DNA of 52,258 bases, taken from the IMG/VR virus record IMGVR_UViG_2721755660_000011. The stretch is one strand, 5' to 3'. Source of the DNA: a virus (lineage: Duplodnaviria; Heunggongvirae; Uroviricota; Caudoviricetes). Under the pieces are notes generated by a model. The model saw only the letters and a list, made by a program, of their open reading frames with translations. It searched no databases and was not told where the DNA came from. How positions within the stretch are numbered: the first letter of the stretch is position 1; each line of letters opens with the position of its first letter. Below are positions 46,398 through 46,834 of this stretch, piece by piece. The position numbers and the translations under genes were made by a program.

Positions 46398-46834
46398 TTG
46401 ATTTTCCTTTTATGTATACGGGCTTAAAAGGATACCACCGAGCCTGAAGTGGTGAAAAGACAGGCACATAACAGCTAAGTATTTTCAACCAAAGAGAATC
46501 CTTAGCGTTGTGGTGAATGCGGCTCAGCGCACGCGGGTTAAGGTTGAGGCTGACAGTCGACCTTCTGTGGATACCCACCCGTCTGGTGTGCAACCTTCGC
46601 CAGGCACCGGGAGGCACCCGACACCACAACTTTATGCTGTGTGTAGTCCTGGCGGTACCAGTTTGTACCCTTGCTTCCGGCTGGTACCGTCCTTTTTACA
46701 AAACAGAGAAGAGCATCACCGGACGACGGGCTCATAACCCAATCCAACCGGGCGGCTGCCACCGCAGGTGTTCTTCTCTGTTTTGTGGAGAAACCAACCG
46801 ACCTTGCAGGGTCGATATGATGAGGAGCAGCAAA

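Follow-up and report, generated by a model that had tools for sequence, protein, structure and literature searches.

A promoter-less relative of the STnc100/PasD small RNAs, followed by an intrinsic terminator, in the early-left leader of a lambdoid phage

The virus record IMGVR_UViG_2721755660_000011 (Caudoviricetes), a stretch of 52,258 nucleotides called here the window, contains a gap at positions 46398-46834, between a minus-strand open reading frame (ORF) of 81 aa (46397-46152) and yfdP, whose ATG is at 46835. Within this gap, the block 46435-46803 is GC-rich, non-coding and strongly structured on the plus strand only. It contains a pseudoknotted domain that is a divergent, sub-threshold relative of the Rfam family STnc100 (PasD, EcOnc27), a Rho-independent terminator and a long three-way hairpin. 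The elements of the gap are, in order:

46435..46454, plus strand: short hairpin CCACCGAGCCUGAAGUGGUG; BLAST joints place the left mosaic boundary of the cassette here
46474..46506, plus strand: stem-loop GCUAAGUAUUUUC / GAGAAUCCUUAGC, seen as an inverted repeat and in the minimum free energy fold; it abuts the 5' strand of P1
46507..46630, plus strand: pseudoknotted domain of about 125 nt, leader variant "type B"
46507-46515 / 46622-46630, plus strand: P1 (9 bp)
about 46519-46534, plus strand: P2, with loop UCAGCG
46534-46538 / 46577-46581, plus strand: helix CGGGU / ACCCG
46540-46546 / 46591-46597, plus strand: pseudoknot AAGGUUG / CAACCUU, the second strand lying in the P4 loop
46581-46587 / 46599-46605, plus strand: P4 hairpin
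46608-46611 / 46617-46620, plus strand: P5, with loop AGGCA
46631..46650, plus strand: linker UUUAUGCUGUGUGUAGUCCU, U/G-rich and single-stranded, conserved between domain and terminator
46651..46697, plus strand: Rho-independent terminator, 12-bp stem 46651-46662 / 46680-46691, then C and U5 (46693-46697)
46693..46791, plus strand: long hairpin, whose 25-bp stem, perfect over a core of 15 bp, closes a three-way junction (from the fold and the repeat)
46787..46803, plus strand: 3' flank GUGGAGAAACCAACC, conserved, the right-hand mosaic end of the cassette
46799..46834, plus strand: small hairpin (46799-46814) and Shine-Dalgarno sequence GAGGAG (46822-46827) of yfdP

An earlier reading of the letters only, made without database searches (hereafter the sequence-only reading), had proposed a structured RNA here, in the transcribed leader of the early-left operon; synteny, covariation and 3' ends mapped by Term-seq in E. 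coli K-12 now back this proposal. The GC-richness that it had noticed was recovered (0.49-0.58 over 46400-46900, against 0.37-0.46 on either side). Compared with shuffled sequences, the segment 46398-46835 folded far better on the plus strand (z = -6.3), and on the minus strand z was -2.9. The inverted repeat it had singled out (46698-46712 / 46772-46786) is exact over 15 nt, and extends to 25 pairs (46693-46717 / 46767-46791) rather than to about 18; by our own arithmetic, some 0.005 inverted repeats of this kind are expected by chance in 52 kb. In the comparison of homologous phages that it had put forward as a check, compensatory changes support the helices: the anatomy of the block is conserved, and the helices of all its parts covary across phages of E. 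coli, Salmonella, Klebsiella and Cronobacter.

Several ORFs cross the block, namely 75 aa on the plus strand (46510-46737), 74 and 80 aa on the minus strand, and an in-frame upstream extension of yfdP. None of them matched a Pfam or PHROG family, whereas both flanking ORFs do match PHROG families. The window, e14, ST64B, 118970_sal3 and Kp4866-6 are separated by 1-nt indels, ORF lengths and frames vary between them, and no frame is therefore conserved. The sequence-only reading, which had seen no protein-like frame and would have given way to a conserved one among homologues, holds on both counts. A small protein, either the "YmfH" of e14 or an N-terminal extension of YfdP, would account for the RefSeq annotation of ymfH on the e14 copy, for the 75-aa ORF and the in-frame extension, and for the phenotype obtained in a retron screen upon "ymfH" over-expression. 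Besides the indels and the lack of family matches, the substitutions track base-pairing and not codons, and the product would be rich in Arg, Cys and Pro, so that we find this explanation very improbable. The e14 gene ymfH (3579-3890 of locus L002; L numbers designate fetched loci) coincides with the type-B domain, the terminator and part of the long hairpin, and is an RNA misannotated as a protein. In a 2020 preprint, over-expression of "ymfH" triggered the retron-Sen2 toxin RcaT; the trigger may perhaps be the RNA rather than a peptide.

At the gathering threshold, the Rfam scan of the window gave no match in the block. In a permissive scan, STnc100 (RF02076) matched 46485-46700 with 32.1 bits (E = 1e-4); the gathering score is 47 bits and was not reached. 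Thus the Rfam comparison, put forward as a check by the sequence-only reading, gave no family at the gathering threshold and one relative below it. The other permissive matches (mir-9412, HCV_5BSL1, ftsZ-DE, DicF, Sphinx_2) all had E values of at least 0.37 and were discarded. A 21-nt motif taken from the STnc100 match, CACCGGGAGGCACCCGNCACC, occurs exactly once in the window, where 0.03 copies are expected, and was found in at least 120 contigs from IMG/VR as well as in at least 120 stretches of genomes. The genomes that carry it are nearly all Enterobacterales (Escherichia, Salmonella, Klebsiella, Enterobacter, Citrobacter, Kosakonia, Pantoea, Erwinia, Rahnella and others).

From the homologues, 32 representatives with less than 85% identity gave a consensus of four nested helices, on which a covariance model, R1, was built. 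R1 scored 77 bits on the window, with one copy at 46504-46633, and found about 165 copies across the fetched loci. A second model, R2, made from copies of the type A described below and including no type-B sequence, also matched the window copy (60 bits, E = 1e-14). Neither model found a further significant copy in the window; the best other match, at 48089-48200, had 12-15 bits and E 0.03. This weak match, on the plus strand, falls at the yfdQ/yfdR junction and was judged not significant. In four loci apparently devoid of yfdP-yfdQ (L003, L034, L046 and L118), the sequence GCCCCUACGGGGGCAUUUAUGGAAAUGUAAUUGACUCAAUAAUCGCCGG is fused directly to the end of the leader cassette; the window sequence at 48089-48200 is close to it but differs at several positions.

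Pair counts were made on a large alignment, A2, fitted to the model, and the pseudoknot was examined with a custom test. In A2, 96.2% of the cells were standard pairs, versus 79% after shuffling and about 44% with slid partners, and 15 of the 24 nested pairs had compensatory changes. An alignment of type-B copies only, made with MAFFT, shifted P4 by one column between subgroups and was left out of the counts. For the two pseudoknot strands, the mean run of contiguous complementarity was 6.7 nt when both came from one copy and 4.7 nt when they came from different copies; a run of 6 nt or more was present in 86% of copies with their own partner, against 24% across copies. Co-varying strand pairs include CUGGUG/CACCGG, AUCAGC/GCUGGU, CCAGUC/GACUGG and AGACUGACAAA/UUUGUCAGUCU. 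The GGAGG in the P5 loop is invariant and might conceivably act as a Shine-Dalgarno mimic or as a CsrA site; likewise, stacked P1 and P5 might conceivably form a tRNA-like or RNase P substrate.

The window copy has several of the features that define the class: the core GGUGAAU followed by CACCGGGAGGCACCCGNCACC and closed by a covarying P1, a pseudoknot in the P4 loop, and a downstream terminator. With STnc100, PasD and EcOnc27 it also shares a P2 loop of the form UNNGCG, the covarying P4 and the invariant P5. It differs from STnc100 by its score (32 bits for a cut-off of 47), by another P2 sequence, by an extra helix and a preceding hairpin, and by having no promoter of its own. Moreover, it lies in the early-left leader, whereas the known STnc100 copies are free-standing genes of the late or lysis region. 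It is thus a leader-embedded, sub-threshold, promoter-less variant of a catalogued but functionally unexplained class of prophage RNAs. Members of this class include PasD1 and PasD2 of enteropathogenic E. coli, Hfq-dependent prophage small RNAs (sRNAs) detected by northern blot and by RIL-seq (ligation and sequencing of interacting RNAs), and EcOnc27/sRNA103 of enterohaemorrhagic E. coli, which overlaps STnc100 and is Hfq-associated; the literature describes them as prophage sRNAs of unknown function. Within the class, Hfq association and base-pairing in trans are reported for PasD and EcOnc27 only. A consensus for the class was made with RNAalifold in a 2026 preprint. The pseudoknot is not in the structure line of the one Rfam STnc100 match that was inspected. 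To our knowledge, RNAalifold cannot predict pseudoknots.

Two main subtypes were distinguished. Type A (AAUCCCCCUGUGCGGAGGGGC...) corresponds to STnc100 as Rfam defines it: the gathering score is passed by arrayed copies and by the copy of 933W, located between stx2B and nanS-p, which reaches 207 bits. A sigma-70 promoter precedes P1 in many type-A copies, with 39 of 85, in a strict test, reaching 8/12 consensus positions and 19 of 85 reaching 9/12, against 1.6% for shuffled upstream sequences; where present, these promoters end 4-10 nt upstream of P1. Type B (AAUGCGGCYAGCGCACGCGG...) comprises the copies of the window, SfV, e14, ST64B, phiES15 and several IMG/VR contigs. The SfV, e14, ST64B and phiES15 copies gave no match at the Rfam gathering threshold. 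Type B is preceded by a hairpin, always lies in an early-left leader, and has no sigma-70 promoter abutting P1 (none of 10 reach 8/12; the best in the window has 6/12). Two window candidates, AAGACA-18-TATTTT (46457-46486, found by eye) and CAGCTA-16-GAGAAT (6/12), were weak, and none is claimed. Over both subtypes, a crude test found a terminator-like hairpin with a T-run downstream of 80 of 118 distinct copies.

Some variants were also noted. In some IMG/VR contigs, 3-5 STnc100-class copies stand in tandem, spaced by about 250-260 nt (L062 4349-5513 and 8357-8555; L012 2265-3380; L021 369-992; L030 1722-3286); the arrayed copies differ in their variable-hairpin and pseudoknot sequences, and L062 has an Rfam isrI between copies. 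A more divergent "type C" domain, in phage 2H10 (L124 2873-3003) and Stx2c phages, keeps the outer stem GTTGTGGT / ACCACAAC with a different interior, lacks the GGGAGGCACCC hairpin and is missed by the covariance model; the same terminator and long hairpin follow it. In the 933W copy (L123 2497-2623), the P2 loop has GUG for GCG, and CACGG stands in place of the conserved CGCGG. This double change, seen in a single sequence, is consistent with a possible second tertiary pairing between the P2 loop and CGCGG.

The block is widespread. Among 5426 complete E. coli genomes, 2863 gave a BLAST match to it, as did 76 phage records, including SfV (98.9% identity), SfII, SfIV, and ST64B and 118970_sal3 (77-79%). 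In all annotated relatives (SfV, e14, ST64B, 118970_sal3, phiES15, Kp4866-6), it lies on the strand of the cI-type repressor gene, downstream of that gene and upstream of the first early-left gene. The latter is yfdP in SfV and ST64B, kil/gam in the Cronobacter phage phiES15, rdgC in F1055 and xisE-intE in the e14 element of K-12. Past a conserved GUGGAGAAACYAAC, at about 46803, the first gene changes with the phage (yfdP, yfdR-like, rdgC or xisE). Because BLAST joints fall at about 46435, 46650 and 46803, the block is a mosaic module, and we describe it as a portable cassette that heads the early-left operon of SfV/e14/ST64B-type lambdoid phages.

Around the domain, the sequence UGCUGUGUG precedes the terminator in E. 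coli, Salmonella, Klebsiella, Cronobacter and IMG/VR copies. ST64B and other type-B copies have a different hairpin at the position of the 46474-46506 stem-loop. The 3' flank (GUGGAGAAACCAACC / GUGGAGAAACC) forms a direct repeat with the start of the domain, GUGGUGAAUGC, which it resembles. The segment 46799-46834 is part of the yfdP module and not of the leader cassette; ST64B and Kp4866-6 have a different hairpin at the position of 46799-46814. As for the left end, a 45-nt module with the small hairpin (46435-46467) is shared on its own with Klebsiella phages, at 95-97% identity, and read on the minus strand the 46435-46454 hairpin with its T-run, placed upstream of the 81-aa ORF, resembles a terminator.

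Directly after the cI terminator, SfV and phage 2H10 have a consensus promoter. The immunity region of the window is different, and the presumed leftward early promoter (PL) was placed by our own reading at about 45808-45836, with an operator-like palindrome in its spacer. Two ORFs with an 83-nt overlap lie inside the PL leader: 45938-46234 on the plus strand (orf33/ymfJ-like, PHROG 3195) and 46152-46397 on the minus strand (ymfI-like, PHROG 3311). ST64B and 2H10 lack both, and their leaders are continuous and non-coding over about 600-700 nt.

The terminator has a calculated folding free energy of about -20 kcal/mol. Compared among copies from E. coli, Salmonella and Klebsiella, its stem has compensatory changes in seven of 12 pairs and its U-tract does not vary. 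In ST64B, Kp4866-6, phiES15 and L086 the stem sequences are unrelated, with the U-tract still following the stem. The ggtacc-containing repeats mentioned in the sequence-only reading are present, and are the two arms of this 12-bp hairpin. The same reading had found no U-tract: this is correct immediately after the long hairpin, but the block does contain one, C-UUUUU, at 46693-46697. Its conclusion that the block was not a simple terminator must be abandoned for the block as a whole, which has a canonical terminator at 46651-46697.

The in vivo 3' ends are those that Adams et al. (2021) tabulated by Term-seq for E. coli MG1655, here for the e14 copy and on the same strand. The end at 1201195(-) is the last U of the e14 sequence CCGCCCUUUUU, equivalent to window position 46697. 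A second one, 1201257(-), at ...CACCACAACUUUA|, lies 4 nt past the 3' strand of P1 (about 46634). The third, 1201423(-), at ...GUGGUGAAAAGACAGGCAC|, corresponds to about 46467, 14 nt past the small hairpin, and is the most abundant of the three. Adams et al. class 1201195 and 1201257 as "internal to ymfH". The Term-seq ends at these places in e14 show that the e14 terminator functions in vivo, and that RNA with its 3' end at the base of the domain builds up. Reg-Seq detected no constitutive start site for the ymfH-xisE-intE unit, which agrees with the lack of a promoter adjoining the type-B domain.

The 25 pairs of the long hairpin are kept in the alifold consensus, some with compensatory changes, and L086 and L019 have unrelated arm sequences at its position; in L019 the equivalent hairpin runs straight into a type-B domain. 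The junction holds two small hairpins and a conserved motif, GACGGGCUCAUAACCCAAUCC / GACGGGCUCAUAACCC. Because its 5' arm starts inside the terminator U-tract, the long hairpin forms only in read-through RNA. With 25 pairs, the stem has the double-stranded length of an RNase III site, for which about two turns, or at least some 20 nearly perfect bp, are needed. Cleavage there would detach the leader and give a yfdP mRNA with a hairpin-protected 5' end, with a change in the stability or translation of this mRNA. In phages λ (N leader, sib) and T7, RNase III sites serve this purpose. The length and near perfection of the stem, the compensatory changes, the unrelated arms of L086 and L019, and the location between the terminator and the first ribosome-binding site all speak for such a site. 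On the other hand, the stem has many G-U pairs at its base, the junction motif GACGGGCUCAUAACCC points to a role beyond that of a plain double-stranded stem, and no K-12 Term-seq 3' end is listed inside the e14 hairpin, a weak negative. We consider an RNase III site possible, with doubts, and compatible with the attenuator model given below.

Among the three functions proposed in the sequence-only reading, an RNase III site, a cis-acting antitermination RNA of the HK022 put type and a small RNA, the last is best supported, by the STnc100/PasD-class core and by the terminator used in vivo. If the domain were of the put kind, the nascent RNA would bind polymerase and let it read through the following terminators, replacing the missing N. 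The setting lends itself to this: as in HK022 and HK639, precedents for antitermination by RNA only, a non-coding structured RNA stands in the early-left leader of a lambdoid phage without a recognisable N, downstream of the early promoter and upstream of the terminators of the operon, here directly before the first conserved one. The very conserved core looks tertiary, and the put annotation of HK639 is 126 nt long, a size similar to that of the domain. However, put RNAs consist of two stem-loops with a triplex, whereas the window domain is a multi-helix pseudoknot, with no detectable likeness to them in sequence or structure. The covariance model gave no match at the HK022 and HK639 put sites; BLAST of the HK022 PL-putL region against the window leader, completed by comparison by eye, gave chance-level matches only; and the put features (two stem-loops, conserved GACGAACGGCGCG...UAAACCAUGCGUCGG...) were not found in the block. 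On read-through that depends on the RNA and on the beta' zinc-binding domain, a mark of put RNAs, the only evidence is indirect: e14 transcripts of an uninduced lysogen end at the terminator directly after the domain. In addition, type-A relatives are followed by terminators and accumulate as RNAs of about 200 nt, and a type-A copy lies in the late region of HK639, a phage with an annotated put-like site of its own. The put option for the block thus appears quite improbable. The HK639 copy (L252 44807-44926, 89.6 bits) lies between the Q and holin genes, with annotated terminators flanking it.

The domain could also be a sensor, in which binding of a metabolite, or of a host or phage factor, decides on terminator formation, as in riboswitches or protein-responsive leaders. 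Invariant junctions together with covarying helices and a pseudoknot are what one typically meets in RNAs that bind a ligand or a protein, and the order of domain and terminator is conserved. Yet no conserved alternative pairing between domain and terminator was found; their spacing ranges from about 25 nt to over 100 nt, and the terminators have sequences unrelated to one another. Behind many type-A copies there is nothing to regulate, since a convergent terminator follows, as with AsxR in 933W, and some contigs carry tandem arrays of up to five copies. We therefore give the sensor little credence.

Other phage leaders offer partial likenesses. In the λ PL leader, with its nutL, RNase III sites and tL1, as for λ 6S and for StxS (PR'-tR', from the 933W annotation), an early or late promoter gives rise to a short terminated transcript, the operon needs read-through, and a long stem precedes the first gene. 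In the window, by contrast, no boxA/boxB, N gene or Q-binding context was recognised, and the terminated RNA has a large conserved fold. The C4 RNA of P1 and P7 and the CI RNA of P4 are also structured RNAs derived from the leader of the operon they precede; the window domain belongs to another family with another fold, and no complementary target site was found downstream. A C4 antisense RNA was detected elsewhere in the window (Rfam, 82 bits, 42572-42659, minus strand), beside isrK (60 bits, 42684-42760, minus strand). This pair is also present in the SfV (L001 1281-1469) and ST64B (L125 407-595) loci, across the immunity region.

We judge it moderately probable that the cassette works as an attenuator: most of the transcription that comes in would end there, a stable structured leader RNA would be released, and yfdP and xis-int would be gated. 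Transcription would enter on the plus strand from the presumed PL (about 45808-45836), or by read-through from the immunity region. The pseudoknotted domain of about 125 nt would be made first, and the intrinsic terminator, 20 nt later, would stop most polymerases. After end trimming or processing, the released leader RNA would measure about 165-230 nt. Downstream genes, from yfdP and yfdQ to xis/int, would be held low, the cassette serving as an attenuator or insulator while doubling as a source of sRNA. Polymerases that read through would make the long hairpin, which would sequester the U-tract and form a structured 5' portion of the yfdP mRNA, and which is a plausible RNase III or stability element. 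We infer in this scheme the attenuator role, a trans function of the released RNA, the role of the hairpin and the source of read-through.

Several points weigh against this attenuator model. Expression of the left operon past a terminator of -20 kcal/mol is not explained by attenuation alone. No target was found for the released RNA: the complement of the linker sequence UGCUGUGUGUAG occurs 7 times in the window, where 4 are expected. The invariant junctions and the pseudoknot exceed what a base-pairing sRNA usually needs, which hints at a bound partner. The in vivo ends come from e14, which is 89-91% identical, in an uninduced lysogen and not in this phage, and the e14 copy lacks 1 nt of the P5 loop, which is otherwise invariant. 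Finally, the homologues were gathered through the exact 21-nt motif of the window and A2 was fitted to the model, both of which inflate the scores.

A further element was found directly downstream of the presumed PL, in the same transcript:

45847..45912, plus strand: two-helix element of about 65 nt, with core AGGCAGGACGCCCACGAAGUAGCC

The window has this element once. In 27 distinct loci it stands directly behind PL/operator sequences that are unrelated to one another. It was found in 51 phage records from Enterobacterales and Aeromonas, including phages of Yersinia, Pectobacterium, Pantoea and Providencia. Covariation supports both its inner hairpin and its outer stem. It occurs together with type-B leaders, and it had no Rfam match in the permissive scan. 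We consider it a candidate put-like element, of which the position and size recall putL and the sequence does not. HK022 putL and the PL-proximal element share a CAGGAUGA/ACGAAC likeness, which is much too short to carry weight.

It is conceivable, although we hold it unlikely, that the whole PL leader is an RNA-only, N-independent control cassette, a second put-like class unrelated in sequence to HK022 put. The element at 45847-45912 would then modify polymerases started at PL, which would pass the leader terminator, while unmodified ones, for instance those reading through from the repressor gene, would stop. The STnc100 pseudoknot would be a fold binding a factor or the polymerase, and the free-standing STnc100, PasD and EcOnc27 RNAs, as well as the arrays, would be its derivatives.

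Elsewhere in the window, Rfam IS009 was found at 3971-4168 (minus strand, 120.6 bits, barely over its gathering score). The minus strand also carries three tRNA genes, one at 50818-50890 and the other two side by side at 32978-33228.

The analysis removes a phantom gene: ymfH of K-12, and the "hypothetical proteins" annotated over the block in many prophages, correspond to a structured RNA. This may offer a testable reason why "ymfH" over-expression triggers a retron toxin. For the STnc100/PasD sRNAs, a covarying pseudoknotted fold with invariant junctions, unusual among base-pairing sRNAs, suggests a bound partner. The same fold is also found in the early-operon leader of widespread temperate phages, before the terminator that guards the recombination, excision and integration genes, and this gives a handle on how lambdoid phages devoid of N time their left operon. 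If the reading of the whole PL leader as a control cassette were true, a large group of N-less lambdoid phages of Enterobacterales would share a common, undescribed antitermination logic.

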